A DNA stretch of 64,000 nt from Gnetum montanum (taxonomy: Eukaryota; Plantae; Gnetophyta). Positions 418 through 54,689 of the stretch are shown one piece after another (position 1 is the stretch's first letter; every line of letters starts with the position of its first letter). Both the position numbers and the translations under genes were made by a program. The stretch is from contig MNCI01001077.1 of assembly GCA_015680685.1 (NCBI GenBank), positions 571,417 to 635,416 of the forward strand. The letters run 5' to 3'. A model generated the notes under the pieces. It did not search any database. It worked only from the letters and a program-made list of their open reading frames with translations, and was not told the origin of the DNA.

Positions 418-2630
418 TGAAATGGCCAAAATGTGCCAACAATAGGCTTTGTGCATTTTGTTATCGCAGTTGGCAGGTTTGTCAAGGAATGTGATGGGAT
501 GTTTAACGTGAAGGTAGCTAAGGAATTTACTACGGTGTTCTCATTACGTGGCATGTCTTGCACATCAGTGGTTGTGAATTTCCTAAGTAGGATTTTTGCT
601 AGGTTGTAGTAGGGTTGTAGGTGTGTAGCCTTGCAGGCGTAGATTTTGATGATTTGATTCACGACTAGTTGTGAATATCCCTAGATTGCTAGGTGTTGTA
701 TGCACAGCGCTTGGGCAGTTAAGAGGCCTGTAAGTAGCCCATCATATTCTACCACATTGTTGGTGGAAGAGAACGCAAAATGATAAGTGAATGGGAACAT
801 TTCCACAGAGGGGAATGTGATCATGGCAGTGGTGCTACCTCCTCACACAGTTGAGGCACTGTCAAAATGTAAGGTAGCTTCAAAATGCAATGGGACGATG
901 GTGACATTGCTAACGTATTCATCTGGGAACTCGGGATCTATGGTAGCCTAGTCATCGACTGGTGAGGCCATAAGTTGGGTTGCTATGGCTTGACCCTTTG
1001 TCAACGATTGACTTACATAGCGTAGGTTGAACCCATGGTTATTACTTTCCATCGGGCTATCCTGCTACTTTCGTATACGTTGCTAGTGATAGCCCAGAGT
1101 ATATTTCTTTTCTAAATGATGTTGGTTATGTTGTGGAATAGGTAATGCCACCAGTTCTTTAGTGCGAAAACTAGGGCTAGGTAGTTCCTCTCTACTTTGT
1201 TGTATTTCTCCTCATGTGTTATTAGTGCATGGCTCAGGTATTACATTGGCATCTCAGAACTGTCATCCTGCTTCTAACATAGCAGTGCTGCTATGGATGT
1301 GTCAAAGGTGGCAAGGTATATGAAGAAAGACTTGTCCCTTTGTCACGAGTGCACCATTGGGAGGTGCGAGAGCTCCTTCTTCAAGTTGTCGAACGCTTGT
1401 TGACACTGGGTTATCCACTTGAAGTCAACCCCCTTCTTTAGAAGATGTTGCATGGGGTGTAACTTGTCAATCAACCTGGCTATAAACCTTCGAATGAATT
1501 GCACCCTACCTTGTAAACCACATAACTCATTAAGGTTTGTGGAAGGTGCTAGGTTGATGATGGCCTTGAATTTGTCATGGTCCACCTGTATTCCGGCCTC
1601 CGATACTACGAACCCTAACATAGATCCAGTCTTCACCCCGAAGATGCACTTCTTAGGATTGAGGTGTAGTTCATGCATTTGGTAGCATTTAAGGACTACC
1701 CCTAGGTCATGTGGATGATCAGCTACCTCTTTGGACTTCACCGCTATATCATCCACATAATTATTTAATGTTTCTAGGATGTAGTCACTAAAAATGTAGG
1801 TCATGGTGCACTGGTACGTTGCTCTAGCATTCTTGAGCCTAAAATGCATCATGCTATAGCAAAAGGTTCCCCATGGGGTCATGAAGTTTGTTGACAACTA
1901 GTGCTCTGGGTTGACATAGATTTGGTTGTATCTAAAGAAACCATCCATGAAGGATAGCAGAACATGGCCAGCCATGGTGTCGATGAGCTTATCAATGCTT
2001 GGGAGTGGGGAGTTGTCTTTGATCATTACCTTGTTCAAGTCTTGAAAGTCTCTACAAATCCATATTCCTCTCATTTTCATTGAAACTACAACAATGTTGG
2101 ACACCCGCTCTGAATAGTCAACTACGCGGATGAACCTTGCTTGGTATAGCTTAGTGATTTCATCCCTTACAGCTAGTGCGATTTTTGGCCTAACTTTGTG
2201 AGCCTTTTTCTTGACTGCCTTTACATGTGGGTCTAGGATAATGTTGTGCTAAATCAGCCATGGATCGAGACTTGGCATGTCGTTGTATGACCATGCGAAG
2301 ACATCAATGTTGTCTCGCAGAATTTTAGCTACACTTTTATGTGTTTGCATGTCTAGGAGGGAGCTGAGTCTTAACTTTTTCACCTCCCCATTTGACATGG
2401 TCATAGGTGTCTCAACAAGAGGATCCTCAGTTACTTCCCCAGCCTCTAAGTCTAGGGCTTAGACCAGGTGCTTGGGGTAATCCAGGGATGCTTCTAAGGC
2501 TACTATGATGCTAGTTGTAGTGGACTCCCAGTCGATCATGTCGAGGTTTAACTATCTTGCGAGCTTGCCCTGTGGCCCTGCTAATGTTAAAGACATGGAA
2601 AGGTCATGATGGATTTCCATATCTGGCTTG
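418..2630 (-). pseudogene. pol: Element A pol remnant: RT, RNase H and archaeal-type RNase H (aRH)
   Basis: ORFs 1898-2104 (ICRDFQDLNK...LSFMDGFFRYNQI) and 1343-1897 (PWGTFCY...NYVDDIAVKS). aRH motifs HFDSAST, TNNVVEYDGLL and (D)SQLVVNQI lie at ~402-880. Many stops. Confidence 0.93.
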
Positions 2631-3354
2631 AATTTCCATCATAAGATGAAAGCCTAATTAAGGTGTGTTAGAGATTATGTGAAACAAAAATCTGCAAAGC
2701 AACGACAAGATGCAACTTGGTAAGTGTGGTGATGTAAAGATTAAAAGTTTGCTAGTTTAAGGTCATGGAAGACCACCAAGGTACAAGAGTGTAGAATTGC
2801 TAGAGGTATAAAATTGCTGATGTAAAGTGAAAAGCTATGTAACTATTGATATGCAAATGCCAGACTGCTAGTTCAGTGTCATTTAGGACTGCCATATTGC
2901 AACATGCAAAATAATAGTATGCAAAATAGGAAATTGTGAGTATGAGAAGCATCGAACTACCAGTGCAAAAATGAAAACATGAAAATGCTAGGAAATGTGA
3001 TACTCCTTATGCAGAAGAGGATGAGATAACTGCTGGTGTAAACATGTGGTGTTGTTAGTTTAACATCACTTGCAGACCGTGCATGTAATGCATTGAATTT
3101 ACTAATTTAGGGCCCTTTCGGACCCTAAGGAGTGCAACTATGCTAGGATTGCTAGTTTAAGGTCTTTTTAGACCCTTAATTGATAAAAAATATTAATTTT
3201 TTATTTTTTGGAAGGCAATTAGTTGGCTTAAAGAGTGTCAAGGATTTAATGCCAATAGTGTTATGATGTCGTGGTGAGCATGCTACGCTGCACGATGTGC
3301 TCGGCATTAATCGTAGAGAGAGAGGGATAAGTTTCCCTATCTTGCCCTTGTGGC

Positions 3355-3513: not shown

Positions 3514-6500
3514 ATGGCTCCTAAGACTCATCTGGTGCTTGCGAAGGTTGAGGAGGTGAAGAAGACCCTAAGTCGTGCACCAAAAGTGTGTGTTCCTATG
3601 CAGGAGAGCACACCATTGATCTAATAAGTTTTTTTCTCCTTCGGTGTTTTCATTTTGCACCTTCTACTATTTTCTAATCTGGTTTTGTATCCTATTTGTT
3701 TTGCTATTTGTGTTTCCTACTGTCACATTTTTTTAGCCTTTGTATCATCATAATCTCCTTTTCGGTCGCGGCTGATGTGCAATCATTTCACTATGGTTGC
3801 ATGCAAGGCCACTAGAACTACCTTCGCCGTGGTTGTCATAACCATGGGGGGTAGGATAGTTTAAGTTTCTTGACCCTAGCATGTCGTGAAGTGAAATCCT
3901 TGGGAGGGTTTGTTCATGTGTGATGCAGCACCGTGACACGTGTCTTGTTTGTGTATGTTGTTAGTTGTTTTGCTGCTATGCTAGGCTATTCACATGCTCT
4001 TTCTACGCTATGTATAGGTAGAGGGTCATGCTATGCTATATGTATGGGCTACTAGACACTGCTATGTTGCATGTGTATCACATTCAAGTGTGATGCTAAT
4101 ATTTTTTGATTGCATTATGTAGGGTGTGACCAAGGTCCTAGCTAATCATTTTGGACATTGGAGGGGTCCTATGCTATGTGAGAAGACCTGTGGCCAATGC
4201 TCATCCTCCCCTGATATGTGTGGGAGATCGAGTGGTTTGGTTCAAGGAAGGAGCACAAGACTTCTTGCAATTCCTTCTCAACCAATTTAGTGTGATTGTT
4301 TAGTCTTCCTTAGAGGAGAAGGAGGCATCTAACATAGTAGAAGCCATGTTGCCAGGGGAAAATCTGGGTATCCTAAGATATTTTTCCAACGAGGAACTCA
4401 TGAGCAGGTAGTGAGGGGGATCCAACCAACATTCAATAAGGTTGAGGTTTTTAGCTTGCATTTGGGACATGCTGGAATACAACTGCTACCACCAGTACAA
4501 CACATTATTTCTCACACGTCACATGGCGATGTACTTTCAGAACCCACAGGGGACTGTCTATTGTGCTGGTAGGTGAGTTTTACATCTTTGCTCTGCTTCG
4601 TTCTGCAATGCTAGCCATACTTGGATGAATGCTAACAGTGTGTGTTTGTCACTAGGTTTTATATTAATGATGATGGGGTTCATGACCAACTGGGTCTACT
4701 AGCTACAGTGTAGCTAGTCCTACGAGAGATTTCTTCTACCAAGAACCTATGGGTAGGTGTGATTGGTCAATGTAGGGGAGAATATCATACCTACCTATGC
4801 ATGCTCTGCACTCTCTACAATCAATGTAGGGAGTAGGGTTGGCTGGATTAGGAGTGAAAAGAATCCTTCAAACATGTCATGGATGAAAAAGTTCTAAAGG
4901 TTGAACTCCTGCTATTCCCATTACCATATAGACCAGGTGGGTCAAAAGGCAGGTGCCACATGCTCAAGTGTTTTCATAATCTTTGCATTCTCTACAGTGT
5001 TATGCTAAGTGCATTTTGTGAAAATTGTTGCAGGGGCGAAGAAGCCTTGTGAGGTGACAATAGTAACCATCGAGAGGTAGGGGGCAAATATCTACTTCAA
5101 ATATGGTGAAGTAGTAGCGAGACAGAGCTGGTTAGAACAAGAGGCTCTAGACTCCTTGCCCGAGAAAGTTCAAAAGGTGGGGCTTATGGATCTATTCATG
5201 GCTCTAAATCTGGGTTTCTCTGCTGCTAAGATGATTTTACTAGTCAACTCCTTCTCTAGGAGGACAAGCCATTTTTGCACGTACGTATGAGGCTCATCAA
5301 GGAGCAAAAATGGTTTTCCATGGAAAAGCTCAAGGACGGCCTTGTCATGGGGATTTACCCGGTCTTTCATGCCCACGCATTCCCTCAACTGCTTACCCAA
5401 GAGAAGGTCCTAGGGCTTCAGTAGCCTTGGGTAATGCAAAAGGTTATGGAAGAAGAGGCCCATTATAACTGGGCCAGTTTCCTATGTAGTGGCTTGCAAG
5501 ATGAAATTTTGGGACTCTGTGAGTAAAAAGTGTCCCACTCTAACATACACTATGCCTTCTACATAGGCTTTCTGAAGTGCTTTGTGGAGTCCCTATTGGT
5601 CCAAGAGGATGGAGCCTGGTCTGTCTGAGATCATGATCATGTTCCCAAGCCATGGATTCGATAGCTCCTCTAGACCATGCAAGCCCAGGATCCCCTGAAA
5701 ATGGTCCAGGAGTCGTTGTCTATAATGACTAAAGATCTGGTAGTTCGTAGCATTTTTGGCCAAGACAGCGTGCGAGAGACACCAGCTATCATAGTCGATA
5801 GTGTGACATGGGGTGAACGTCTCATAGCTGAGAGTGTCCCCAAGGATTTGCAAAGGAAGAGGCCTCTACCATCCAAGGAAACCCTTCATGAGGAGGAGGG
5901 ATGAAGACTATGTCTCAAGCTATAGAGGACACAACCCCCCATTGGTAAGCATTCTTTATGTAATGTTTACTTTGCTATAGTTTGCTACACTATGCTACGC
6001 TAGGCAATGCAACATACCGTAGCATCTGTTTTGAGCTAACTAATTTTGAATCAATGCAAACATGCATTTTTGATAGTAGAGGAAGAAGAAGATGAAGAGG
6101 AAGGTAATGAGGAAGTGTTGGCCCTTAGGATGAGGGTGACGAATAAAAATGTGAAGGCCCCCGTTTTGGAGGAAAGGGCCCTGGTTAGGAATAAGGGAGC
6201 TCCTGTCTCTAAGGTAGTGGCTCTTGTCATTAGGGAGCCTCTTCCTACCAACAAAGAGGTACGTCCATTAAATGAAAAAGATGCTAGTATCTTGAAAGGA
6301 AAGGCACTAGCACATGAGGAAGGGGCTCATATGGACTTGGCAGGGCCCTCCACCAAGGCTACCATGATTGTCTTGCATCAACAGGAAGAAAGACCGTAGC
6401 TGGATGCTGGTGAGTTGGTGGGATGTTTGTCTTATCATAGCCCATCTTAGACACTATTGACATGCTTAATTGTGTAATAGGTGCTACTGCTAATGTCTCA

Positions 6501-7737
6501 GGACCCCCTGCAGCTTATGCGGAGTCATCGGCCGAGGTCCCTGACTAGTTCGCATTTGTGCAGGGACTTGTTGACGACATGATCAAATGCCTTCAGCGGG
6601 TGGGCCCTCGCACGGGTAAGTAGCAGTATCAACCATCCTTATGTTGCTATGCTAAAACCTTTGAATTTGTTAATTATGCTATGCTAACATGATTACTACG
6701 CTCTTTTTGTTGAATAGCCTCCTGGCTCAAGTCGGCCCTGGCATGACCTATGAAGGTTGGCATCATGCCTACACTCTCGCCTGACGTTACTGAGGTATCT
6801 CATCACACGTTTGATGAGGCTTACAAGTGTGTCTTACACTCAACACGCTTTCTATGGGAATTTAGGCACATCAATTAGAACCTGTGGAAATGGGTCCAAA
6901 GGGCTAAGTAGAGAGAGGCTGACCTGGCCGCCAAGGTGGAGAATCTGAGGTCGAGGAATGCTTTTCTTATAAACCATAGACGACTACGCCAGGTTTTGGA
7001 TTGTTGTTCACCAATATGTTGAATCCATCTATGAGATAGTCAACTATTAAATGCAGATGGAATTGCTAGCCCAAAAGTGTCAAGATATGAAAGATATTAA
7101 TGCGAAAGTTTTTGAATGGGGGCAAACCCAGAGAAACCACAAACATACATACAAGTCGGAGAATGACATACATCGAAGACTATACAAAGATGCTGCTGTG
7201 GAGGCATTCACATATGAAGCATTCATAAATGTCATTGGCTCTTATGAGGGCTATGCTAAGTTCAAAGAGTAGGTGACGGTCATGGAATTTCCTGACCTGA
7301 AGGTGGACCTTCCTACAGGAGAGACCACAACCACTTCCCTTTCCCCAGAACATCTAAAATGGACAACCATGGAAAGGGAGAAAGCTACTACTACAAATGA
7401 TGAACCTAGCGATAGGCATTGGATGGACATTACGATAGAGGAGATTTGACATCGCCTCAAGCTTGGTCTAGATCATATGTCCCTTAAGACCAATGCAAGC
7501 TCCTCTCAAGTTAGTCGATTTAATGGGTAGATGCTCATGCTATGTTATAGCTTGCGTTTGTTGCCTTTGTTGCCCTAGGTGACTACTTCATTCTTGTGAT
7601 GTAGGCTTCAGATGAGGGTGCGAGATCCATGGAGGGGGGAAAATGAAGAACCAATAGAAGGTAATGTAGGGGATGATGCACAAGAAGACAAAGCAAAGGA
7701 AAATGGTGAAGGTGCTGCAAATGGAGACAACCCATGA
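3514..7737 (+). pseudogene. Antisense 7-exon accessory gene of element A: FCP1/NIF-like HAD domain, PMD-like domain, acidic/coiled-coil tail
   Basis: Exons about 3514-3623, 4123-4572, 4656-4948, 5034-5944, 6077-6615, 6718-7509 and 7605-7737, with phase-compatible junctions (two donors are degenerate or GC). Peptides: LIILDIGGVL...WFKEGAQDFLQFLLNQFSVIVxSS...NTLFL...QNP and LVNSFSRRTSHF...HYNWASFLCSGLQDEI. Confidence 0.8.
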
Positions 7738-7909
7738 CAACATGGGATTTTTTTTTGAATTTTTTGCAAATTTTAAAATGCTGAAATTTTGAAATATTTT
7801 GAAAATTTCGCAAAAATTTACAATAGGTGAAAATTTTGAATGAAATGAAATACTTTAGAAAAGAAACCGATTTTATGTTAACTTGTATACTAGGTAAAGT
7901 TATCATGCT

Positions 7910-8244: not shown

Positions 8245-11200
8245 TGCATAGTTGCTTATTGACCCATCGTGGGTTGAACGGAACGTAAGGTCGAGGTGTT
8301 TCGCCAGGGCACTTGTTCACATCGTCGTCCTCCACCTGGAAGGGTAACTCAACCCATGAATTTTTGATTTGGGAGTTGGTTCGCTGAGCTGATCTTTCTA
8401 TTGAATGATTAATGCATGCATGAACAGGTTCTTCATTCTCATAGGTTGTAACCTCTGAGCCCTATTCCATGTTTACATTGCTAATTGCTTGCATTACCAC
8501 TTCATCACCATGGATTACCACCTCCCTACCTACGTATCTTAAGCAAAGTTCCTGGTGTATAGGTGAGCAGACAACCCTAAGTTGCACTAACCATGATCTT
8601 CCCAAGATCAAGTTAAACCTGGGCATTTCTTCGACTACGATGAATGTTACATTTGTGGGAAACTGGTTCCCTGCTATGATGTTTATGTGAATTGTGACCT
8701 TCACTAGGACACGTGCCCCATTGAAGGACCTCAGACACGATGTTTTCGTTGGTTTGATTTGGTTGACCAATCCCAACTTATCCATAATAGGGAAGGAAAT
8801 GATGTTTGTGATGGCCCCATCATCAACATGTACCCTTCAGATCCAGTGTTGGCCAATCTGAATTGTGATGAAGAGAGGTGCCATAGTCACTTGGACCCCT
8901 TCAGGATCTTCCCTGATGGCATCATTACTAAAAGTTAATTGAGGTGGCATAGGCTCTGTGGTTACAGAGGAAAGCATTACCAACTGGATCACTTCCTCTT
9001 CTTTTGGCATGTTTTCGTCGATTGGAATCACCATTAATATGTGGGCTAGAGCCTCTCAGTGGGGTACAAATGTCATGATTAGGTCATACAAGCTCAGTGT
9101 AGCATTTTTTTGCTTTAGGCCTTGCCCGACCTAGGTGAGGTCATCCAAAAGGTCTTGGCTACCCACTTGTTTGATACTTTCCTCCTCTTCGATTCATCCT
9201 AGAAGATGAATCTCTCGAGGAGAGGTGAGTTCAGATCTAGGTTCAGATCCTTAGTGGCCAGGTACTATAGGCTACATAATCATGTTGTCCTTCATCTTTG
9301 GTGATGAGGGTGAAAATTCGAGGGCCAAAGGTGTAGGCTTAGGAATACTCTTGATGGTACTTCCATTCGACGTCTCGCTTAACAAGTGGGCTTCTCTCCT
9401 TGTGGGGCGAGGAGGTTGTTCAATTTTGTTGCATGAGATAGGGGCTATCAAAGAAATCAGCCCCCTGATGATAAATGGGGCTAAAGATGTTTACTAATGG
9501 GACCGCATGGCCTCACTAATAAGCTATGCAAAGGTGGATGCCCATGGTGGGACTTTCAGGATGAAGGGCGGTTAAGAGCTTGGACCAACCGTTGGTGGTG
9601 CTGGTGCACAACGCGGAGGCACATGGATCACAAATGGTTGGCAAGGTGGCCTGGGATCATTGTCAATGTCGATGGCATTGATTATGTAATTGGCATTGAG
9701 GGAATCCATGTAGACATACAAAGATTAATTTTCAGTGTGTACTAGGTTGCTTTCGTTGAGCACCAGCTTTCCTAGATCGATTAATCTTTGGATATCATCC
9801 TACAACGATAGACAATAATCTGTGGTGTGACCACATAGTTGGTGGTAGTCACAAAACCTGTCTAGCCTGAAACCCCTAGGGATTGGAGGCTCATTGGGTA
9901 GGGCCAAAGAGGGATTCCTAAGGAGCTCGCAGTAGCATCGATGTCTTGCATTATCTTCTTTTGACATCTACTTGTGTTGGATGTATCCTACTACCAACAA
10001 GTTATTCAGGAGTTCTAAAGGTTTGAGAGGTAGTGGGGTGTATTTCAAGTGATCGTTGCACTCAAAGTTTTGTTTGCTGTATGCAGATGTCTTGGGTGTA
10101 GGTGCAGCAGGTTGCGGTGCTTGGCCTACTTTTGGCACAGTGTTAGTCATAGGTATGGCCAATCTCTTACTATTCTTACTACCGCTACTACTACATTTGG
10201 GCTTGGCCTTAGTTTCCATAGCAGCCATTGTGGTTGTTCGGGCCTTACCCTTGTCCTTCTTTGTAAAAGGTGGTCTTGTAAGAGATGTAGGCCAAGTCTT
10301 TGCTTGCCTTGGCCGCATCTTGTATGCTCTTAGTCTAAGTGAAAGCCTTACTAAGAGAGCGAGGAGCGAGGTAATACACCTTCAACTTGATGAAGTCATT
10401 TACTAAACCCTTAAAGATAGCCAACAAGTTGACCTCCACGATGGGCTCATGGATTTCGTTAAGGGTTGCACTCTAATGTTGAATGAATTTTTGGACTAGT
10501 TCTAGTGGGACTTGTTTCACACTCGTCAGCTAATCCAGCATGGTTTCTAGCTTTAATTTGTACTTGAAGCGTGTGACAAAGTTGGTCAGGATTTCTTCCA
10601 AAGTTGAAATGGATGAATGTGGCAATGCATGGTACCAATCTAGAGCTTTCCCAACTAGGGATATGGAGAAGACATGAATGATCATGTGTGACCATTGTTA
10701 CAATAGAAAAGACTTAGACCTGAAAGTGATAAGATGCACATTGGGATCTCCCTCCCCATCATACTTCATGAAATGTAGGAGAGACATCCCAGGGGGTAAC
10801 GTTAAAGTAGGTATTGCAGGGCTGACGAGGTCATCTTGATAAAAGTTCATGACTTGTACCATGTCAGACCCAACAACTTTGAGGCATTTTATTTTCTCAG
10901 TGAGGGTCTAGATGAGTTGAAATGCTTGGTCTAGACCCGGTGACATTGTAGACGATTGAGGAACTGTAGAGGCAACTCCCACATGCAGCATGGTGGCGGT
11001 GGCGGGCTGACTCATCGGTAGTGCCGTTGGGGCTGTTCCCACTAAAGGTGTTGCTTGTGTTGTCTACCACCTGGTGGGTGGTACTGTCAGAGCAGTAATA
11101 GCAGGTTGAGCTACCAGATAGACTGTTTGGATCATCAGCAGGATAGACTATGGCCACATGCTGGGATGTACCATTTGCGAGGTTGGGTAGGTTTGAGGGT

Positions 11201-12050: not shown

Positions 12051-12149
12051 TGCTAAGAAATTAATTATGCAAAATAGCACAAGAAGTTCAAAAAGAACAA
12101 AGCGACTGAAAAAGCAACAAAAGGTGGCTTTACATATTTTCGGATTTCA

Positions 12150-12960
12150 GAGGAATCGTTGAGGCAACCGATCTATAATACACAAAGCGTAAAAAACCAC
12201 AAAAGGGTGTCACATTTATGCTAGTGCACAATGAGGTATATAGCACATGCGAGACTACCATAAGGCAAGTTCAGTTAACTGACAATCAAGAAGGCTTTGT
12301 GTCTCACAGTATTCCAGAGGGACCGTCGAGGTGACCAACTTGCACCACACAAGGTACAAACAACCACATAAGGGTGTCACGTTTATGCCTATGTGAGCTA
12401 GGGTGCATAGCACATGCAAGACTACTATAAAAAGGTAACACAAGTTAACTAGCCTTCAGAAGGCTTTATGTTTCATAGGATCCCAAAGGGACCGTCGAGG
12501 CTACCGATCTACACCGTACGACGCATAAACAACCACAGATGGATGTTAAGTCTACACTAATGCATATCAAGGTGTATAATTCTTGCAAGATTACTGTAAG
12601 ATGAGCAAGCTAACATGAAGGCTTTGCCTCTTTTAGGATCCCTGAGGGACTGTTGAAGATACCGATTTGTACTAGACGAGATGGGGTCCAAAACACATGC
12701 AAGACAATTGTAAGACGGGCAAGCTAACTAGCGATCAAGAAGGCTTTGTGTCTCGCAAGATCCCCAAGGGACTGTTGAAGTGACCGTTCTATACCACATG
12801 ATATGAGGTATAGAATGCATATAAGAAAACCATAAAATAAGCTAGTTAACTAGCAATCGGAGGCCTTGTGTTCTGTAGGACTCTCGAGGAATCATCGAGG
12901 CAACCGATCTGCACCACACAAAGCGCAAACAACCGTAAGAGGGTGCCACATTTATGCTTA
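12150..12960. repeat. 5'-UTR degenerate tandem repeat of element A
   Basis: About 6 units of ~120-190 bp sharing gaaggctttgtgtctc...gggaccgtcgaggtgaccgatctgcaccac. B has only about 2 units (59070-59370). Confidence 0.75.
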
Positions 12961-13021
12961 TGTGTATCAGGGTGTAGAAGGCTCATAGAACTACCATGAA
13001 ATGTGAAGAAAACACCAAAAG

Positions 13022-18119: not shown

Positions 18120-21100
18120 CTAGACTAGGCTGATCAAGGTTTCTACGAGGAATTTAGAGGAGGAAGTGGTGGGTCATTCTCACTGTCATCACTAGGGCTA
18201 CCAATATCTCTTGATGCTTGAAATACGATAACCCCTAGTTAGTAAGTAACCAATAGCCAAAACCATAACTTAAAACTAAAACTAAAACATAAAATGCATT
18301 AAACCTGTGGAGATTCTAGCTTCATAACCTTTTGAGGTAGATGTGGAAGTCCTTATTCCAAATGATGAAGGATTTGGTCCTCCATCATGTTAACCCAGTC
18401 AACATTCCTAAGATCAACATTGCGAAGGAAGCCAATCTTGTCTACCATAGTCCAAGTAGATGGCTCTTGGGTAATAGCAGCTATAGAGGTCTCACCTAGA
18501 GTAGTGATTATCTAAGGAATAGGAAATTATTTCACCATAATAGGACTCTCAAAAAGAAGATAAGCACTCTTCACCTAGATCCCCTAGATGAAAAACTATC
18601 TCTTGCATCATTTAACTAACTCTTCCTTGAGCCACTTGAGGTAGGCTCCATGATCTACTTTGTACTACTGTTTGTGGGAATTTTGTTTCTTACCCCACTC
18701 TATAACCCAAGCATAGTGATCTTTCCAATCCTTGACATTATAGAAGATGATGTTCATCTACATCTACTATTCTACCATCTCTTATGATAGTGCTACTTTG
18801 TCCTAAATGACATGCTAGAATAGGCCCATGTGATCTCTTCAGTCTGAAATTTCCTTGAGTTAGCCACTTGGGTTTCCACAAAGGCTTTATAGTCTTGGAG
18901 ATCTCTAATCACCTCCTCATACCATTGAGTTTTATCCCTTGAAGCCAAAACATGTTCCCATAGAAATTTTTTGGACCAGTTCATCTCCCATGATGTTTAT
19001 GAACACAACATCACTAAATCACCAACATTCTCATATAACATTAAGGATACACTAGATACATTAGAGGGAAGCCTTGTCAAGGAGTTAATCTCCATGTCTC
19101 TGCTAGGGTCCCACTCTACAGAAGGAACTACATAATCAAAAATATAATCATAAACATGGTGGAACCATAACATAAACATAGCCTGTAACATAGCCAAATG
19201 ACTAAGCCATATAAAGTAAAGTTCTTACGTATCTTAGGTGCAACTTGATGCAACCATTCCATGATGTCCTCAGCCATCCAATGGATGAACTCCACCTTGT
19301 TCATGATCTCTACCCATTTTTTTCACAAACCTTAGGGATAGAATCCTAAATCTATGGCTTAGGAACTACGATAAGCATAATAATCAATGAATGGTTAGGA
19401 TGAAAATCAAAATTAGACAATAGGATATAACAAAAGTGTTAAGGCATGGGCATATAAGGCCCCTCCTCTTTTTCTTCTAGAATGATGATGGTAGACATAC
19501 CATGCATCACCTCCATGAAAAAAGCATCTAGATCATTTATGTATACCTTAGGTTGTTGTAGGAGTGCATCTTCTACATGCCTTTCTTCCTTCTCTATGGT
19601 AACTTGGGCTACTAGGACTTGATGCTTATCTACAATCATAGAACATAGAAAACTAATTAGCATATGAAACCATAATATAACCATAACTCTCAAAATAAAA
19701 TAAAATAGCCAAAACTTAAATAAATCATATCGATGATTACCTATTGTGATGGCTTAATCTAAAACTTAAGCTTCTTCATAGCCAGTTGGTATAATGCTAG
19801 TATTTCCTCTTCCATGGACCTCTTGAGTTTCTTCCCAATTGTCCCTTTAGCCTTCCTATATATTTTTTTTTTGGCCTCTAGGACACTCATTGGAAACATA
19901 AGAGGCTTCTCATCATCCATGCTATCATGGAACTCACATGACCTACAATCAAGATCCTTGATGGAAATGGATAGTGTATCATCCATCCCCTCTGGTAGGT
20001 TCTAGGTTTACACCATTGGATAAATGTGCTTTATCCAAGTCCTAGAAAGTTGGCTTGGGTCTTGGGAAATCCATCGTCCATTCCTCTACACCACTAGAAA
20101 CTCCACAAACCTCTTCAAGTAACTTATGTAAAATGTAAAATGCATGTGGATTATGGTAGAGGTTTCCTTTTACAATCTAATGATCTCATCCTAAATCCCA
20201 TTAGCCAAAGTAGCCACCTAGTTGAACCTAGTGCTATCTATCAAGACCTTCATAAAGGTCCAACCCTGCATGATGTTGATCATCTTCTTTTGTGATAATA
20301 GTTTGGGAAATGCATGAGACCTGAACAAAGGATATGATTCCTTTGAATTAAGGTTTGTGGAGCTATCCATTAAAATTCTAGAATGGCCCATGTTGGTACC
20401 AATCCATTCCAAAACTTCCTCACGATCATGCCATTCCTTCACTATTTTGGCGGAAACCTTTGTCTTGTTAGAAAGGACACCAAAAAGATTACAAAAGAGG
20501 TCCTTATTAATGTCCATATTCATCATCATGCCTCAAATGATAAAATAATCAACCCTTTCATTGAATTATTCGATGATGTAAATAATCTCTATAGTGGGGA
20601 TGGAAGGGATAGGTGTCATAAATAGATCAAGAAAACGCACATGCTGAATGTTTGCTTGAATGTACCTAGTCACCTGTCCCCTTCGCCATTTCTATGTTGG
20701 TATCACTTTAGAAAAATCAGGATAAGTGTATTCTCATGACAACCTACAAGTGACAAGCTAACATTAGTAGAGATGGAGGGTCCTATGAGCCAACAAATCA
20801 TGTTTAACATCAACATAAGCAAGTTTAATAGAACACTTAGAATTTTCATAACCATAAAACCTTAGAAGCTACAGCTTGTATGTTTACCTTTCTTCTTCTT
20901 CTTTTATGTGGTTTGAGCCAAGGTATTAGCTACCAAGGTCTAATCCAAGAATCTCTTAGACCCCATTGACAAATTATGTATCATCCTCTCATCCACACAC
21001 TTCTTATAAACAAGGTTGAATCTACTAGTGTATGCATCAAAGTCTCCTCTTAACTATTCATACACAATAGTTTTGATCTGGGGCCCCTTTGTAAATAAAT

Positions 21101-21750
21101 CTAAGGTGGTTTGATCCATTGCCAAGGTTTGATCACTAATGATCAAGCCTTGATCATTAACCCTTTACCTACAAGAAGTTCACAAAACCAATGAAGTTAG
21201 AAAAAGTAGTTTAGCTAGTAAATCCAAAAAACATAAAAATACTACAATAAACATGATTAGCCTTGTAGATAGTACACAATTTTGGGTAGGTTCCAGAACA
21301 ATGTGTGGGATTTATGCACCAACATCAGAGTATTTCTAGCATTATACTAACTATACTCTAGCATGGTCCAAATCTCTATAAGGTAATCTGGGCTAGTTGT
21401 ATCTGCTATTTTCCTTGTTGTCTAAAGAGGTAGATTTTTAATAATAAATTTGGAAATTAAGCCAGATGCTTGAGGTAGTAGTGTCTCCACTATAGCCCAT
21501 GCCACATCCATGAATAAGTGTGGCCATAGCATCACACTAAAATTTTATATGATGCAGGTAAGGAATTCCCTTACCCTAGTCTCGAACCATAGTGATACCT
21601 TCCCCAAAGGTATGTTAACGAGTGGGGTGTTGGCCTTGGGACGACTAATATAGCATAAGATGCCCACTAAATTCAAAATGATGAATATGGGCTTTAGGAA
21701 GATCCTAAATGGCTAGGGAAATAACATTATGATCAATTAGAATTTCTTAC
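18120..21750 (-). pseudogene. Antisense multi-exon accessory gene of element C (homolog of 3514-7737)
   Basis: Minus-strand translation: KPIFIILNLVGILCYISRP...LWFETRVREFL...FSVMLW...NTLML, then MDINKDLFCNLFGV...YPLFRSHAFPKLLSQ...RFNxVATLANGIxDEI. ttgtag acceptors at ~21170 and ~20745 lie at or near the intron positions of A and B. Confidence 0.78.
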
Positions 21751-25800: not shown

Positions 25801-26300
25801 NNNNNNNNNNNNNNNNNNNNNNNNNNNNNNNNNNNNNNNNNNNNNNNNNNNATTGTGCTTAGTATGGAAGAAAATGGAGAAGTCATTTCAACATGTTCTA
25901 ACACCAAACATTAACTCAAATTACCTCAAAATGAAGCTATAGGATTCATAAGTCCTACATCTAGGCTCAAACCATGAATTTGACTTTTTTTTATCATATT
26001 TGGATCAATATTTTTATTCTCCACACAAAACCCCTCTCTTGCATGCTAGCCAACATGAAAATAAGGGGAAAATGTTGCAAAACCTACTTTTTGACATTTA
26101 TAGGTCTCTAGAGCACTTATTTTTGATAGATCTTACTCTACACTATCTTTGGAAGGCACAAGGACATCAATTTTATTCCTCTAGATTTTTTAAAATCTAC
26201 TTCCCTAGTTTCTATACTAAGGGTGCCTTCTTCCATGCTAGCTAACATGGAAACATGGGAGGCCCAGCTTGGAAGCTTCAAAATTCTTAATTTTCATGTC
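22900..26300. repeat. Degenerate long-period repeat region rich in TCCATGCTA motifs
   Basis: For example 24330-24480 resembles 24698-24845 (period ~370 bp). Many ccatgcta/tagcatgg motifs. Confidence 0.6.
25774..25851. other. Assembly gap (78 N)
   Basis: Run of N. Confidence 1.
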
Positions 26301-26699
26301 CAAATAGACCAAAAAGAGCCTTGAATGATGTACAAACTCATGTAATGGCCTTGTATTCCTAAATAATAGCCTACTAAGGTTTAAAATTTCTGAAACCTAA
26401 TCCTATTTGACCTATAATTAGCCAAATTTCATCATATGTAGCCTATTTTGCTTAATTCTTTATCTTATTAAATGATGCTTTAACTTGTTTTTGGCCTAGT
26501 CTTGCATTGTCAACCATGTTAACCATTTTTAGCCTTATAATTTACTTTGTTTGACCATGGTTTGAAATTTATATATTCTTTATTACAATTTGTTTTCTTA
26601 CCCTACTTATAGCCTTAGATGAGCTTGTTTGCATTAGGATAGCATGTATTTGTGTAATTTTATAGCATTTTAACATTATTTATCCACTTTCACCCAGAT

Positions 26700-29304
26700 G
26701 CCACTTAATGTGCTTATGGTTGACATGAAGTACTGAAGTATAAGTACCTATGAGTAGATCATTCTACCTTTGAGCCTATGTGGGCCTCATGATGATGTAA
26801 AATGATACATCAAACCTGATTGCCTAGATCTTGAGCCTGAGAGTCTTGTTGATCACATATCCTCAATAGATAAACCTCTAGAATGAAATGAAAACCTAGT
26901 CAAGACTCTTGACTTAGAGGTGGGCAACAAAACCAAAAACTCTCTAGTTGAGGTTTCTATCACAACACAAATTGGTAAGGAGAAAACCCTTAAACTAAGC
27001 TCCTTAGTAGAAGCTTAATAGGCTCAAGACATTACTAACATCCTACATGGTAATATTAAGGGCTTGGCCTTGTCATATGAAGATATGCTAGGCCTAGACC
27101 CATGTCTAATCTAGCACAACATCATACTAGATCCTAGCATTAGAGTAGTTAAGAAAAAAGTGCACAAAATTACACTTGCTTTGGATTTGGTAATTTGTGA
27201 TGAGACCTTAATGATTTACCAAGCTAGTTTCATTAGGTATGTCAACTATGTAGAATGGGTATCGAACATAGTGGTAGTCCCTAAGAAAAATGGGAGTATT
27301 CATATTTGCATTGATTTCTAAGATCTAAATAAAGCAACCATCAAGGATGGCTTTCCTTTTCCATGTATTGATCAACTTATTGATATTATAGCCAAATATT
27401 CCTTATCCTTTATGGATGGTTTCTTATGATATAATCAAATCAAGATCAACCCATAGCACCAACTTAGTAATACATTCATGATTCCTTGGGGTACCTTTTG
27501 CTATGCCATGATGTCGTTTGGTCTTAAGAGTATAGGGGAAACCTACTAGAGAGCCATGACCTATATCTTCAATAATTACATGCTAGGTTTTCTCAATGAT
27601 TATGTGGATGGTCTAGTTGTTATGTTCAAACTATCCAATGATCATGCTAATCATCTAGATCTTATGCGCAAATGATGCATCAAGTACAAGCTTAGACTCA
27701 ATATTAAGAAATGTATCTTTAGTGTCAATATTGGTAAGATGCTTGTCTTTGTAGTATTTAAAGTGGGGATAAATGTTGATCCTGATAAGGTTAAGGCCAT
27801 ATCTAAATTAGTAGCACCTACCAACCTTAAGGAGATTTAGGGATTACAAGGTAAATTATTGTTTATTCTTATGTTTTTTCCATGCTTACAAATAAATTAT
27901 AGCTCATGCAATACTTCCTTAAGAAAGGAGTTTACAATGAGTGAATGGCTTAATGACAAGAGACCTTTGAAAACCTTATGTAAGAGCTAGCACAACTACT
28001 AATAGTCTATCTTCTTCAAGAGGGTAAACTATTCTACATCTACCTTACCATCTTTAACATATCCTTTACCTCTCTAATTTATCAAAAACATGATGATGAA
28101 GTAGAGATGCATATGTACTATCTTAGACATGCATTAGTTTCCCATGAGACTAATACACTAAAGTCAAGAAGTATTTTCTAGTACTAGTCTTCTTATTGAA
28201 GAAGTGGAGACACTACCTCTTCAGAAGCCAAGTCAATGACATTTGCAAAGATAATGTGCTCAAAGCCATAACAACGAACATTTGTAGAAGTAGCTATATA
28301 GCTTGATGGAATGACATAATCATAGAGTTTATCTCTCAATCAATAATAAAAGGTCAAGCTACATTCATACAACTCACTATTTTTCCTATTGATGACTAAG
28401 TAGCCATAGATCCTGAATTCCCTAATGAGCATATTAACATTATTAGCAAAGTACTCAAGGAGCATGAGGTAGTTATGCACTTTGAAGAGGCTTCAACATC
28501 CCATGGGGCTAGTGCTACTACCATCATAACATTTCCATCTAGTGAAATCTAATCCTTCACCTATCCTTTTGAATTTCCATGTACTAATAACATAGTATTA
28601 TATGAGGGTTTGATCAAGGGGATGATGGTAGCTCGTAACCTAGGAATTAGATGCTTAATAATCAAAGGCGATTCATAACTTGTGGTTAACTAGGTAACTA
28701 AATTCTATTTCTGTCACAACATAGGTATTAAGCATTCTTTCTTGCCACCTTATTACCATTAAGCCAATGGACAAGTAGAAGCAACCAACAGATCCATCAT
28801 TAAATTTCTCTAGAAGATGTCTAATAACCGCAAGCATAAATGACATGAGTGGCTTCTCCATGCAGTATGGCCATACAAAATAGCCTATTGCATAAAAACT
28901 GGTGTTACCCCTTATATCTTGTTTTATGGTTCTAAAGTTGTTATACATATTGATTTGCAAATGTCTTCACTTTGAGTATCCTTAACTAACTTCATCAATG
29001 ATGAGAAAAAAAAGAAATTGTAGAAAATTATATTGGACTTGGTGGAGGAGCAATGTATGCAAGCATTTTCTCACATTAAACACTATGAAGAGAGGTAGAA
29101 GTAATAGCACCATAATAATTTGACAAGGCATTAGATCAAGGAACATGACTTGGTCAGTATGTAGACAAATTCTTAGCCAACTAGGAATGTCCCTTCCTTG
29201 TAACAAGATCCTATGGAAATGATGCATTCAAGATCACAGATTTGGATGGGAATGAGCTAGCCAATTTGGTCAATCATTCCTATCTAAGGACATACTACAT
29301 GTAG
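26700..29304 (+). pseudogene. pol: Element C pol: RT-RH-aRH and truncated integrase
   Basis: EWVSNIVVVPKKNG...DYVDG; aRH CTNNIVLYEGL...GDSxLVVN; then an abrupt jump to INT ...ANGQVEATNRSII; ends VNHSYLRTYYM*. Confidence 0.9.
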
Positions 29305-46226: not shown

Positions 46227-49200
46227 CAGATGTGCTATGGCTTGAGGTACGAGTGATTCACCGGGTTGGCGAACTTGTTGTCGTCCATGTCCGCCAGCTT
46301 GAAGGCTCCATTCCTGAAGGCTTTAGTGACCATGTAAAGACCTTCCTAGTTGGCTAAGAATTTTCTCGCATGCTTGCAGATAGCCTTGAGGATGAGGTCT
46401 CCCTTCTGTACTAGTCTTCGATGCAAGTTTGCATGGTTATTTTGCTGTTTCTTGCTCTAGTATCGCTCTATGTGGCTCAGCATCTGCGCACGTTCCTCCT
46501 CTATTGAGTTGAGATCATTGATTTGTGACTCATTATTCTGGGCTTTTCCCATGACATCTGAGAGGATCATCTAGAGTGATGGTACCTACAACTCAAGAGC
46601 CAACACAGCTTCAGATCCATAAACAAGGCTGTAAGGAGACTTACTTGTTGTGGTTCTACATGTTGTGCTGTAGGCCCAAAGAACATAGAGGATTTTCTTA
46701 TGCCACTGCCTCTTGCTATTTCCAAGCATTCACTTCAGTAAGTTGATGATGGACTTATTTGTAGCCTCCACTTGCTTGTTCACCTATGGATAGTATAGGG
46801 AGAAGAATGATTGCCTGATTCCTAGGTCACTGCAAAAGGTTCAGGTTTTCATACTACTAAATTGTGGCTCATTGTCAATTGCAATAGTCATTGGAATCCC
46901 AAACCTCATTATGATGTTATCCAAGATGAAATAGAAGATTTGCTAAGACATTATTTTCCTTAAGGGAATAGCTTCCACCCACTTAGTAAAATACTCAGTG
47001 GCGGTGATAATGAAGCTATATCCTATGGAGGATTTAGGCATGATGGATCCTATGAGGTCTAGTCCCCATTGTTGGAAAGGCCACATGATTTGTGTTGGGT
47101 GTAGGTCCGTAGGTGAGAAGTGTATGAGATTTTTGTATCTCTGGCATGTGTTACATGTCTTGGCTTTCAACAAGCAATCATGCTCCATGTGGAGCCAATA
47201 GTACCCTAGGCATTTAATTTTGACAGCCATAGCTTGGGGTGCTATATGTCCACCACATAGTCCTTCATGCACTTCATTAACTACCTTATGTGCCTACACC
47301 ACGCATGCCAGCAATATCCCTTTATAGGAACGTCGGCACAAGGCATCATTTCCCATGAGAATATATTGCTAGGTGTGCTTGCGGATCACATCTCTCTAAG
47401 GAGATGTCTATTCACTTAGGGGTTCACCATGTTGCAGGTAGGCTTTAATGTTAGCGTACCACTCCTAGGTATCCACAACAATAATAGAGGCCACGTGTCT
47501 TGCCTGAGTGATGGGCATAATGCATTCGACAATCAAGTTTGGAAGACTTGAAAATGAGTGTGGTTGAATGTTTAATGCAAGGGTGGCTAAGGCATCTACC
47601 ATAGTGTTCTCGTTGCATGGAACATGTTGCACATATATGGTTGTAAATTTCTTAAGCATGCTTTTTGCTAGGTCATAGTAGGGTTGTAGGTACGTAGCCT
47701 GGTAGGCATAGACCTCAATGATTTGATTCACAACTAATTGTGAATCACCATGGATGGCCAAGTGTTATATGCATAGTGTTTGGGCAGCTAAGAGGCCTTT
47801 GAGTAGCCCCTCATATTCTGCCACATTATTGGTGTAGGGGAATGCAAAATTATAAGCAAACAGGTGCATTTCCCCAGAGGGGAATGTAATGATGGTAGCT
47901 GTGCTACCTCCTCATGTGGTTGAAGTGCCATTGAAGTGTAGAGTATCTTCTAGGTGTGATGGAATGATGTTGATTGTGCCAACATGCTCATTTTGGAATT
48001 CGGGATCTATGGTTGCATGGTCATCAATGGGTGAGGTCGTAAGCTGCGTTGCTATGGCTTGACCCTTAGTCGATGATTGGCTAACATAGTGTAGGTTGAA
48101 CTCCATGGTTACTACTTTCCATTGGGCTATCCTGCTACTTTCATAAAGGTTGTTAGTGATAGCCTAGAGTATGTTTCTTTTTCAAATGATGTTGACTGCA
48201 CTACGAAATAGATAGTGCCTCCACTTTTTTAATGCAAATACTAAGGCAAGAAAATTCCTCTCCACTTCATTGTATTTTTCCTCATGTGGTATTAATGCAT
48301 GGCTTAGATAATACACTAGTATCTCAGATCCATCATCTCATTTCTGACATAGTAGTGCTGCAATAGATGTGTCAGAGGTGGAAAGGTAGATGAAGAAATG
48401 CTTATCCCTTTGTGGTGGATGCATAGTTGGGAAATGCGAGAGCTCTTCTTTCATGTCATCGAAAGCTTGTTGACACTAGGTTGTCCACTTGAAGTCAACC
48501 CCTTTCTTTAGAAGATGTTGCATGGGGTGTAACTTGTCAGTCAACTTTTCTATTAACCATTGGATGAACTGTACCCTGCCTTGCAACCCACGTAGCTCTT
48601 TAAGGTTTGCAGGAGGTGCCAGGTTGACAATGGCCTTGACTTTGTCAAGGTCCACCCTTATTCTAGCCTCCAATACCATGAATCCTAACATGCATATGAT
48701 TTTCACACTGAAGACACACTTCTTGGGATTAAGGCACAAATTGTACATTTGACAACACTTGATGACTACCCCTAGATCATGTGGGTGATCAGCTTCCTCC
48801 TTGGACTTGATTGATATATCATCCATATAGTCATTTAGTATTTCTAGGATGTAATCACTAAAGATGTAAGTCATGGCTTCCTGGTAGGTTGCTCCAACAT
48901 TCTTGAGTCCAAAAGAAATCATGGTGTAATAGAATTACTCCCATGGGGTCATGAAGTTTGTTGTTAGCTAATGATCCATGTTGATGTGAATTTCGTTGTA
49001 TCCTAAAAAGCCATCCATGAAGGATATCAAAGCATGACCAGCCATAGTGTCGATCAGTTGATCGATGCTTGGAAGTGGAAATTCATCCTTGATCATCACC
49101 TTATTCAGATCCCAGAAGTCTATGCAGATTCGTATTCCTCCTATTTTCTTGGAAACCACAACGATGTTCGACACCCATTCTGAATAATCAACTACACGGA

Positions 49201-50429: not shown

Positions 50430-53400
50430 ATGGCTCCAAAGAAGGTACACATGAATTTGTCACTTACAATGGTCAAGGAGGTGAAGAAAACCCTAGGGCA
50501 CATGACACAAATGTGTGTTGTGGTGCGGAAGGACATGCCATTGACCCGGTAGGCCGCTATGATTCCTCTATTTGTTTTGCAATTCTGTTATCACTTCTTT
50601 TCTTCTATTTTCTACTTTCATTTTGTATCCTAGTCTTAGCCATTCTTGTTTTCTGTTGTTACATTGTTTTGGCCTTTGCATCACTACTATTGCTATTTTG
50701 GCTGTGGTGGATGCATAAGCGTTACACCATCGTTGCATGCAAGGTCAATTAAACTACCACCACAATGGTTTTCATAACCGTGGGGGTGTACACAGTGTAA
50801 GTTACTTGGGTTTCGAATGGCGTGATGTAGGACCCTTAGGAGGTTTGGGCAATGCATGATGTGAGAGTGTGACATGTGTTCTATCGAGGCATATTGTTAA
50901 TCACCCTATTAGGATTAATTGCTCTATTGCTATGCCAGGATGTTTTTGCTACGCTACCACTTTCATGTTCTTGCTACGCTATGTGCAGAAAGAGGGTTAT
51001 GCTACTCTATATGTATGAACCTCTAGGTATAGCTATGTTGCGTGCGCATTGCGCTTAGACATGATGCTAACACTTAGTAGTTGCGTTGCACAAGATGGAG
51101 CTAAGGCCAATCCTGATTATTTTAGAAATTAGAGGGGTCATGTGTCATGTGAGAAAAATTGTGGCCAATGCCCCTCCTCCCCAGATACATGTGGGAGAGT
51201 GGGGGATCTGGTTCAGGAAAGGAGCATGGGACTTCTTAAAATTCCTCCTTGACCAGTTCAGTATGATCATTTGGTCATCCCTACAGGAGGAGGAGGTGGC
51301 CAACATAATAGAAGCCATATTGCCTAGGGCAAGTTGGGGCATTCTGAGATTTCTGACTGATGGGACAATCATGAGTAGGCAGGGAGAAGGATCTAGTCAA
51401 TGCCCAATAGGGTTAAGGCATTTAGCCTAGATCTGGGATATGCCTAAATATAGCTATTACCACTATTACAACACATTATTCCTCACATGTTATATGGCAA
51501 CATGCTTCCAGAACCCATAGGGAACTATCTACTCTGCTGGCGGGTGAGTTTTGTAGCCTTGTTCCACTGTGTTTGTACAATGATGGCCATAATGGCCTAA
51601 TGCTAATAGTATGTGTTTGGTACTAGGTTCTTCATTAATAAGGATGGGGTTCATGACTAACCGGGTCTGTTGGCTATAGCATATATAGCCCTATAGGAGC
51701 TCTCTTCTATTGAGAACCTACCAGTGGGTGTGATCGATTAATGCCGGGGTGAATACCATACCTACCTAGGCCTATACTCTATTCCCTATGATCAGTGCAA
51801 GGGGTAGGGTTGGCTAGATGAGGAGTGGGTAGAATCGTTCAAACTAGTCATGGTTGAACAAGTTATGGTTGAACTTCTACTATTCCCATTACCGTATAGG
51901 CCTGATAGGTCAAATAGTAAGTGTCGCATACTTAAGTTTTTTTGCAATATTTGTATTTTGTACATTTTTATACTAAACATTTTTTCCAAAAACTATTCCA
52001 AGGGCGAAGAAGCCCCAGGAGGTGATGGTGGTAATTGTTGAGACACAGTGGATGAACATCTATTTCAAATACAGTGAAGTAGAAGTGAGCCAACGCTAGA
52101 TAAACCGTGCGTCTTCGGGCTCCTTGGTCTAGAACATCCAAAAGGTTGGGCTTATGGAACTATTCTTGGCCCCAAATCCAAGTGTTCTTGCCACCAAGAT
52201 GCTCTCCCTAGTCAACTCCTTTTCTAACAAGGTGGGCCACTTCTACATGCACATACAGGACGTGCAGGTGGTCATTGAAATCAATGAACATCTATTTGCA
52301 TACTTGTTCCGTGTTCCTACTGACAGCATCCTCATAGGGTTGAAGGGCAAGAAGGAGCTGATCCTTCAAAAGAAGGATACATAGGAGTGGCTTGGGATTG
52401 CTAAGGAGCAAAAAGGTCTCCCCATGGATAAGCTTAAAGATGGGCCTGCCAAGAAGATCTACCCTATCTTCCATGCTCACACATTCCCCCAGTTGCTTAC
52501 CCAAGGGAAGGTCCTATGGATCAAGCATGCCTGGATAATGCATTAGATCATGCGCCTGGAGTGGGACTCTGATTTTTGATGGAGTCCCAAGATTTTGACC
52601 TATGACTAGATTTCCAAACCATGGATTCACCAGATCCTCTAGACCATCTGAGCCCAAGGTCCCCCAGAAATAATTGGGGAGTCGTTGTCTATAATGACTA
52701 AGGATTGGGTGTCCTGCAACGTTCATGGCCATGATAGTATAGGAGAGATACCCCTTGCTGTAGCCGATAGCGTGTCACGGGGGAAATGTCTCATAGCCGA
52801 GACTATGCCTAAGAAGTTGTAGTGGAAGAGATCTCCTTCAGCTAATGAAACCCTTTGCATGGAGGAAGAGGAGGAGCAAAGACTATGGCTTAAACTGCAG
52901 AGGACACAACCTCCCATTGGTAAATGCTTTTGTCTAATGCTTACTTTGCTATTGTTTGTTATGCTATGCTACGCTAGGTGGCATAGCGTAGCATGACACC
53001 TGCTTTAAGCTACTTGTTTTGGACTAATGCAAATATGTTTCTTTGCTGGTAGAGGAAGAAGAAGAAGAAGAAGAAGGTGACAAAGGGATGTCGACCCCTA
53101 AGACAGGGGTGACAAATAAACGAGCTCCTATCACTAAGGCAGGGGATCTTGTCATTAGGGAGAATCCTCATCTTAATCAAGAGGAACCTCCCTTGAATAA
53201 AAAATATTTTGATCTTCTAAAAGAAAATGCACCAATGCATGAGGAAGGGGATCATGAAGACTCAGCAACGCCTTCTACCAAGGCTACCGCCATCATTTTA
53301 CATTAGCAAGAAGGGAGACTGCAATTGGACACTGGTGAGTTTGGCAATATTTCTACCTTGTCATAGCCTATTTTGGCCATTTCTGATATTATTAGTTATG

Positions 53401-54689
53401 TAACAGGAGCTACTATTGATGCTACAGGACCCCCTCTAATACGTGTGGTGTCATGGGCTGAGATCCCTAATAAGTTTACGTTTGTGCAGGGAATCGTTGA
53501 TGACATGATTAACTACCTCCAGCAGGTGAACCTTGATGCTGGTAAGTAGTAGTGTTAGCTACTCTCATGTTGCTCTACTTGAGATTTTTGAGTTTGTTGA
53601 TCTTGTTATGCTAATGTGATTGTTACGCTCTTTATGTCATGGCAGCCTCTCGGCTCAAATGGGACTCAGCACAACCTTTGAATGTTGGTGCTATGCCTAA
53701 ATTCCCACTTGAAGTGATCGAGGTGTTTTGTCATGCATACGACAGGGATTGCAAATGCATTTTTTACTAGGCACGCTCCTTGTGGGAGTATAACTGCGTC
53801 AACGAGGACCTGTGGAAACAGGTCCAAACAACTAAGCAAAGGGAGGCTAACCTAATCGCTGAGGTGGAGGATCTCATGTCGAAGAACGAGTTCCTCATAG
53901 CCCGTGACACTAATAATGAGGACTAGTGCACTACTGTGATAGACTATGCTAGGTTTTGGATAGTCTTGCATCAAAATGTTGAAGCCACTCGCGAGGTAAT
54001 CAAGCAGCAAATGCAAATGGACTTGCTAGCCCAGAAGTTTCAACATTTGAAAGATTTCAGCCCCAAGGTTCACGAATGGGGGCAATCCTAGAAAAAACAA
54101 AAACACATGTATAAACTAGAAAATGACACCCATCGTAGATTGTACAAGGATGCTATTGTGGAGGCATTTACATATAAAGAATTCGTAAATGCCATCGACG
54201 CTTCTAAGGTCTATGCCAAGTTTAAAGAGCAAGTAAAGGTTACTGAATCTCCTGACCTGAAAGTGGACCTTCCCACAGGAGAGACTGCAATAGTTTCCTT
54301 TTCCCTAAGACCACCAAGGTGGAAAACTACTGAAAGGGAGAGAGTTGTTGCAGACATTGAACCAAGAAACAGGCATTGGATGGACATCATGGCAGAGGAG
54401 GTCTGGCTCGGCCTCAGGCTCAGTCTAGACTGGATACCCTTTGAGATGGATGCAGGCCCTTCTCAAGTTAGTTACTTTCTACTATATTCATGCTTATTCT
54501 CTATTGTAATCTATGTGCATTACTTTCGCTAACCACTTCATTTCTATGATGTAGGCTCCACATGAGGGCATAAGGTCCATAGAGGGAAAGAATGAAGAAT
54601 CGGTAGAGGGAAATGCAGGGGAAGGTGATGCAAAAGGAAATGATGCAAGAATGAATAGTGAAGATGATGCAAATAGAGACAACCCATGA
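50430..54689 (+). pseudogene. Antisense 7-exon accessory gene of element B
   Basis: MAPKK start. The HAD-like exon is ORF 51086-51430. The 83-bp intron 51544-51626 has the same length as in A. PMD-like ORF 52154-52384, acidic exon from ~53050, coiled-coil-like ORF 54107-54532, last exon 54555-54689 ending DNP* as in A. Confidence 0.82.

Follow-up and report, generated by a model that had tools for sequence, protein, structure and literature searches.

Results

An antisense gene in three Tat-type elements

We have analysed a stretch of 64,000 nt from Gnetum montanum (hereafter the window), in which three decayed Ty3/gypsy elements can be recognised. In each of them, a gene in antisense orientation lies in the gap between gag-protease and reverse transcriptase (RT). 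The three copies of this gene, named A, B, and C, constitute our sequence evidence, and their coordinates are collected in Table 1 together with those of the element genes. The extra gene has the same slot and the same orientation in all three elements with the gap in view, and no further copies of its exon 2 or exon 4 are found in the window. A previous sequence-only reading of this DNA had proposed that the gene is encoded by a transposon, and the antisense position of the exons within Tat elements bears this out.

Table 1. Features of the three elements and of the antisense gene in the window.
Feature	Position	Strand	Evidence or remark
Copy A RT-RNase H region	470..2775	-	77% DNA identity to B 47539-49849
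Copy A exon 1: ATG, short basic peptide	3514..3623	+	Donor decayed GT>AT; B has canonical GT there
Copy A exon 2: NIF/FCP1-like HAD domain, catalytic acids missing	4123..4572	+	PF03031 E 0.016; motif codons
Copy A exon 3: likely HAD-domain end plus linker	4656..4936	+	64% amino-acid identity to B; not alignable to C
Copy A exon 4: conserved domain, PMD-like by eye	5034..5944	+	136-nt frameshifting deletion ~5293
Copy A exon 5: acidic, low-complexity linker	6080..6615	+	
Copy A exon 6: conserved region, possible coiled coil	6718..7509	+	Conserved to C
Copy A exon 7: acidic tail and stop	7605..7738	+	
Copy A aspartic protease	8579..8893	-	Pfam PF09668 E 0.005, below cut-off
Copy A gag	10449..10673	-	Pfam PF03732 E 7e-4, below cut-off
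Copy C gene, distant family	18266..21710	-	tblastn; codon-position signature
Copy C exons 2, 4, 6	~21700-21260, 20743-19741, ~19120-18300	-	Exon model partial
Copy C RT	27277..27723	+	Pfam PF00078 E 2e-9
Copy B pol: RT, RNase H, additional RNase H (RVT_3), integrase	46790..49153	-	Pfam E 6e-17, 9e-25, 1e-16, 2e-10, one frame
Copy B seven-exon gene	50430..54689	+	6/6 junctions in frame; PF03031 E 1.7e-4
Copy B exons 1 to 7	50430-50548, 51094-51543, 51627-51904, 52002-52919, 53053-53541, 53646-54466, 54555-54689	+	

In the pol of copy B, Pfam recognises RVT_1, RT_RNaseH, RVT_3, Integrase_H2C2, and rve in sequence within a single frame; in copy C the RVT_3 match is weak. The order is RT-RH-aRH-INT, and it contains the additional RNase H (aRH) by which the Tat clade of Ty3/gypsy is recognised. 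Since this is the order of the Tat 'retroviral' structure 1 (PMC10508981), we have assigned the elements to that structure, which is reported from hornworts, clubmosses, ferns, Ginkgo, gnetophytes, cupressophyte conifers, and angiosperms (PMC10508981; PMC13468544). The gag of copy C was located by DNA similarity via a fourth remnant; the protease of this copy was recognised only by eye. In these elements, pol is 5-10 kb away from the protease.

Several other features were observed in the window. There are a fourth gag remnant (43187-43600, plus strand) and a fourth RT remnant (61027-61761, minus strand). Tandem units of ~167-169 nt occupy the 5' leader of elements A and B (12125-13008 and 59053-59385), a 36-nt tandem repeat is found directly downstream of the copy B integrase (46041-46220), and imperfect ~90-nt repeats are located at 38048-38517. 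Copy C has ~5 kb of AT-rich sequence between exon 2 and RT (21710-27050), including an N run at 25774-25851. In copy A, a pyrimidine-rich AG acceptor-like site stands directly ahead of the RT frame, with a less clear counterpart in copy B, and the protease-side frame stops directly ahead of the gap (positions 2692 and ~8270 on the minus strand in A; ~49770 and ~55180 in B). As has been described for the intron of Ogre, removal of the entire antisense gene by splicing may perhaps give access to pol here.

Exon structure and coding signal

Copies A and B are each divided into seven exons, with totals of 3214 nt and 3210 nt, respectively, which are predicted to be spliced into one protein of ~1,100 residues. 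The predicted joins are in frame at all six junctions of both copies, and five of the introns measure 83-135 nt and one ~500 nt. The splice dinucleotides are canonical in 20 of 24 cases, and the other four are G>A changes at which the sister copy is canonical. A and B are homologous, so their junctions count once, and donors 1 and 3 were picked with the reading frame in view; the four junctions with canonical sites in both copies correspond to a chance of ~1 in 81. Junction 3, which carries the claim of a fusion between the phosphatase-like exons and exon 4, is the weakest: A offers a choice of two donors, neither site is intact in B, and the phase is different in copy C. An alternative donor for intron 3 at 4952 in copy A breaks the frame and was rejected; with the chosen one, intron 3 is 97 nt long in both A and B and in frame.

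Compared with copy C, exons 2, 4, and 6 show 18-43% amino-acid identity, and codon position 2 is better kept than position 3, a pattern that amino-acid-optimised alignments somewhat favour. The RT, used as a control, shows the same pattern against copy C. Between the A/B-type and C families, the extra-gene proteins are ~30% identical while the RTs are 58% identical. For exon 4, the frame alignments to C score 245 (A) and 187 (B), whereas the highest values reach 49 and 59 in 300 shuffles each, and 103 and 55 in the other frames. The identity to C is 0.61-0.66 at position 2 and 0.34-0.39 at position 3. The 5' piece of exon 4 in copy A aligns weakly (65, shuffle maximum 50). Judging from these alignments, the coding frame of exon 4 is more than chance. 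Exon 3 of copy C cannot be aligned to that of A or B (scores of 21-23, i.e., at shuffle level).

Transitions make up 72% of the 1307 changes between A and B, which indicates that these two copies are long dead. Their identity is 0.71 in exons and 0.68 in introns, and indels are multiples of three in 7 of 13 exonic and 2 of 12 intronic cases. Actually, all three gene copies in the window are dead. In exon 6, a JAKMIP_CC3 match is found in copy B (Pfam E 0.008, below the cut-off), and the heptad score of the exon is reached by 2 of 100 shuffles in A, 25 in B, and 21 in C, so that the signs of a coiled coil are mixed. With part of exon 6, a language-model atlas gave unnamed bacterial clusters as matches, which stay under the recognition threshold. 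Overall, the anatomy of the antisense gene is solid and unusual.

RNA reads

We have aligned six RNA runs at 80% likeness, two of them on both the A and B regions. The reads amount to 99, 43, 232, and 106 on the copy A region, and to 1861, 108, 708, and 334 on the copy B element. Most of them are less than 90% identical, which means that they derive from relatives. In one run (X10), a strand excess was considered as expression of the extra gene and rejected, since the same direction prevails over pol and gag. No spliced read joining exons of the extra gene was found on regions A and B in the six runs, so the splicing stays predicted. That is, the proposal that the HAD-like exons and exon 4 are on one transcript holds as far as a single in-frame spliced gene is predicted, but no RNA read displays the joint.

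Exon 2 resembles a phosphatase without catalytic acids

Exon 2 is similar to the NIF/FCP1/SCP family (PF03031) over the N-terminal half of the domain, where motif II and the NTL segment are recognisable, but it stays below the curated cut-off of 21.8 bits. The match reaches 21.7 bits in copy B and 15.3 bits in copy A (E-values in Table 1) and is limited to profile positions 3-87 of 160. Copy C has no PF03031 match in Pfam, and its exon 2 aligns to those of A and B at 32-35% identity. None of six proteins scanned matched NCBIfam. Exon 3 presumably contains the end of the HAD domain, going by its likeness.

HAD phosphatases are characterised by the motif I DxDx(T/V) and an acidic motif IV. None of the three copies has the second acid of motif I, and only A has the first Asp; the acid pair of motif IV is likewise lacking in all three, including the distant copy C. 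At these positions, the codons are not of the kinds that arise from Asp codons by C>T/G>A decay. A pseudophosphatase of HAD type is the likelier reading of this sequence. The (pseudo)phosphatase that had been suggested for this locus is therefore upheld in the form of a NIF/FCP1-like exon 2 lacking its catalytic acids.

Other searches with this part of the gene gave little. The AlphaFold2 model of exon 2 is too poor to be used (pLDDT 38.5), so the lack of a Foldseek match to it at E 0.001 has no bearing on the fold. Word-index searches with the NIF alignment returned nothing among 3827 longer and 209 near-length proteins. A PDB sequence search with exon 2 gave a single spidroin match, which we put down to chance. 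In the exon segments scanned, Pfam gives no match to PPP-family metallophosphatases, and the phosphatase-like part matches NIF. This bears on the parallel that had been drawn with MAIL3 and PP7L, which turns out to be loose: the pairing of a putative PMD with a phosphatase-type domain is common to both, but the phosphatase-type domain is PPP there and HAD here, and here it is N-terminal. HAD and PPP are unrelated folds, and PP7L is catalytically inactive.

Exon 4 and the plant mobile domain

The sequence-only reading had combined five peptides from exon 4 of A, B, and C, listed under 5034..5600, into one pattern resembling the plant mobile domain (PMD), DUF1985, and Transposase_32. All five are present in the window, but only three of them, KVGLMDLF (5174-5197), YNWASFLCSGLQDEI (5464-5508), and HYAFYIGFL (5548-5574), belong to copy A, while the LVNSF...RVPTD piece (52208-52324) and YPIFHAHTFPQLL (52460-52498) belong to copy B. 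Copy A has a variant of the last peptide and lacks most of the LVNSF...RVPTD piece, its deletion (Table 1) being placed by the A-B DNA alignment. Copy B has lost 135 nt around 52561-52590, which takes out the YNW...FYIGFL segment. The two deletions are near-equal in size, look independent, and fall in opposite halves of the exon; the near-equal size is probably a coincidence. Only copy C has both segments in one frame (20742-19741, minus strand), with 12 stops in 334 codons. Thus the combined domain is real, but the window contains no intact copy of it.

By eye, the order and spacing of the motifs fit the PMD pattern (LV..F....F......IT......LGLP.D ... Y.W...L..L), most clearly in B and A and more loosely in C, which departs from it. 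A loosened version of the earlier pattern matched only copy B (0 of 200 shuffles) and was set aside as circular, since it was written after seeing the sequence.

The resemblance was confirmed by none of the searches, all of which are low-powered on a fast-evolving sequence with ~30% decay. Exon 4 of the heavily decayed copies A, B, and C has no Pfam match to PF10536, PF09331, PF20167, or PF04195, with E allowed up to 5 in the PF10536 scan. A profile of four exon 4 fragments found no match at E 0.001 among 1.84 billion proteins (HMMER), and none was found among PDB sequences. A word-index protein search with exon 4 of copy C gave nothing among 602 candidates, and in a metagenome scan none of 137 pattern matches was confirmed. 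The AlphaFold2 model of exon 4 is likewise too poor to be used (pLDDT 34), so that the fold searches with it are uninformative; they gave only generic helical matches, the best with Z 6.5 and rmsd 2.8 over 80 aligned residues, and from the absence of VANC21 among the fold matches listed nothing follows. Taking the motif likeness together with the known antisense PMD ORFs of Tat elements, we lean towards a relationship of exon 4 with the PMD superfamily, and we treat both the PMD label and the anti-silencing role as hypotheses.

Discussion

Comparison with known systems

Antisense accessory ORFs of Tat elements are already known (PMC7264820; PMC11963269). Those with a PMD are described from gymnosperm lineage III on, often with a coiled coil (PMC4408406), and for Ogre 431 antisense 3' PF10536 matches are given (PMC6317226 Additional file 4). 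The Ogre table, which lists domains found at E 1e-10 in at least five elements, contains neither NIF nor HAD (PMC6317226). The gene studied here is similar to these PMD-coiled-coil ORFs (lineages III, IV, and V; Ogre eORF-3'R) in its Tat host with additional RNase H, in the protease joined to gag, and in being an antisense extra gene in which a conserved mid-domain precedes a region that is possibly coiled. However, those ORFs are placed 3' of pol or 5' of gag. The present gene occupies the protease-RT gap, is predicted to contain six introns, carries a NIF/FCP1-like domain at its N-terminus, and is a putative PMD member.

The antisense product of Grande is said to be a nuclear protein with its own promoter. 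The antisense Transposase_28 ORFs of Retand and Grande are likewise accessory genes of Tat elements, but they are described as angiosperm-restricted, lying between pol and the 3' LTR, and carrying PF04195, which has no match here (PMC11963269; PMC7264820). Among host genes, Arabidopsis MAIN/MAIL1-PP7L and the MAIL3 PMD-PP7 fusion likewise pair a putative PMD with a phosphatase-type domain, which in PP7, PP7L, and MAIL3 is a PPP metallophosphatase domain (PMC7156037); as the gene here is HAD-type, any likeness would be convergent. The PMD fold of MAIN/MAIL1 is reported to resemble the anti-silencing protein VANC (bioRxiv 2024.09.27.615353; PMC13547354). VANC21 (DUF1985, from VANDAL Mutator) is a transposon-encoded accessory factor with a PMD-like fold and may serve as a functional precedent for the mechanism proposed below, but it is a dicot-specific factor of DNA transposons, the descriptions consulted mention no phosphatase-like head, and our searches gave no sequence or fold match to it. 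Retrotransposon PMD-A clades (PMC5418596) and the capture of enzyme domains (PMC9289625) have also been reported.

In the literature searched, mostly at title and abstract level and with few subscription journals, neither a multi-intron antisense gene between protease and RT nor a NIF/FCP1 domain in an LTR element is described. What is new with respect to print is the position in the protease-RT gap, the six introns, and the pseudophosphatase head.

Proposed function and alternative explanations

The explanation that we favour, at somewhat less than even confidence, is that this is a decayed antisense accessory gene of Tat elements whose spliced protein of ~1,100 residues was likely a nuclear factor keeping the element transcribed. 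The gene would have its own internal promoter, and since the RNA that is packaged comes from the opposite strand, the introns of the gene would not be lost through reverse transcription. By analogy, exon 4 could be a divergent PMD-A/VANC-like fold that binds the DNA or chromatin of the element. The dead phosphatase would bind phosphorylated partners, e.g., the Pol II CTD, without dephosphorylating them, and the two domains would jointly favour transcription of the element against silencing. Host PMD proteins have been reported with mixed effects, both silencing transposons and opposing Polycomb (bioRxiv 2024.09.27.615353), so the fold by itself does not tell in which direction such a protein acts. 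A more specific version, namely that a non-angiosperm Tat lineage carries an intron-bearing antisense gene fusing a PMD/VANC-fold DNA-binding domain with a dead CTD phosphatase that reads phosphorylated Pol II, is in our opinion rather unlikely.

Among the alternatives, the strongest, which we consider a serious minority possibility, is that the gene encodes a genuine, selected accessory protein of which exon 4 is not a PMD or the job is not at chromatin level, e.g., the export of RNA, splicing of the long gap between gag and pol, or the assembly of particles. The direct PMD tests are all blank, and a pol so distant from the protease needs special handling for its expression; against this, the motifs of B and A do fit the PMD pattern by eye, and the searches are weak on copies with so much decay. 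It is also in favour of this alternative that the additional ORFs found in plant LTR elements form hundreds of groups without relationship to each other (PMC6317226), and against it that those in antisense of Tat elements are most often PMD or Transposase_28 (PMC4408406; PMC6317226).

It is less probable again that the protein dampens the element, or that the HAD domain is active in living copies on Pol II or element proteins. Copy A does retain the first Asp of motif I, and DxD is not strictly kept in some FCP1-like proteins of host plants either, but the acids of motif IV are gone even in the distant family. Although loss of the host MAIL1, MAIN, or PP7L frees several transposons from silencing, the effect of MAIL1 on transposons is reported to be indirect, via MORC1 (bioRxiv 2024.09.27.615353).

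A captured host gene or nested insert, carried as a passenger without function for the element, is improbable. Gymnosperm transposons capture very many gene fragments (PMC13477047), and the predominance of transitions between A and B (72%), with exons barely more identical than introns (0.71 vs 0.68), would suit such a passenger; nevertheless, the frame has been kept between families whose extra-gene proteins are only ~30% identical (RTs 58%), in the same slot and orientation, and protein searches reveal no close host donor. Just as hard to credit are separate transcripts or proteins for the HAD-like exons and exon 4, since, despite the uncertain junction 3, the unalignable exon 3 and different phase of copy C, and the missing RNA joint, intron 3 has an equal length and keeps the frame in A and B, and neither a start codon nor a promoter-sized gap separates the two parts.

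Implications

What the antisense extra ORFs of Tat elements do has long been an open question, and the fold of their PMD connects them with a factor for which anti-silencing is proven. If the factor that we favour does combine a PMD/VANC-fold domain with a dead CTD phosphatase, a retrotransposon would encode its own targeted transcription or anti-silencing factor, independently of the host PMD-PP7 proteins and with an unrelated phosphatase fold. A pseudophosphatase head found family-wide would in addition name the class of its partners, i.e., phosphoproteins such as the Pol II CTD. Moreover, it would mean that a gene with several introns can be maintained in a retroelement by antisense placement, even within the gag-pol interval. 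Provided that such factors are active, they could contribute to explaining the amplification of these elements in very large, heavily methylated plant genomes.
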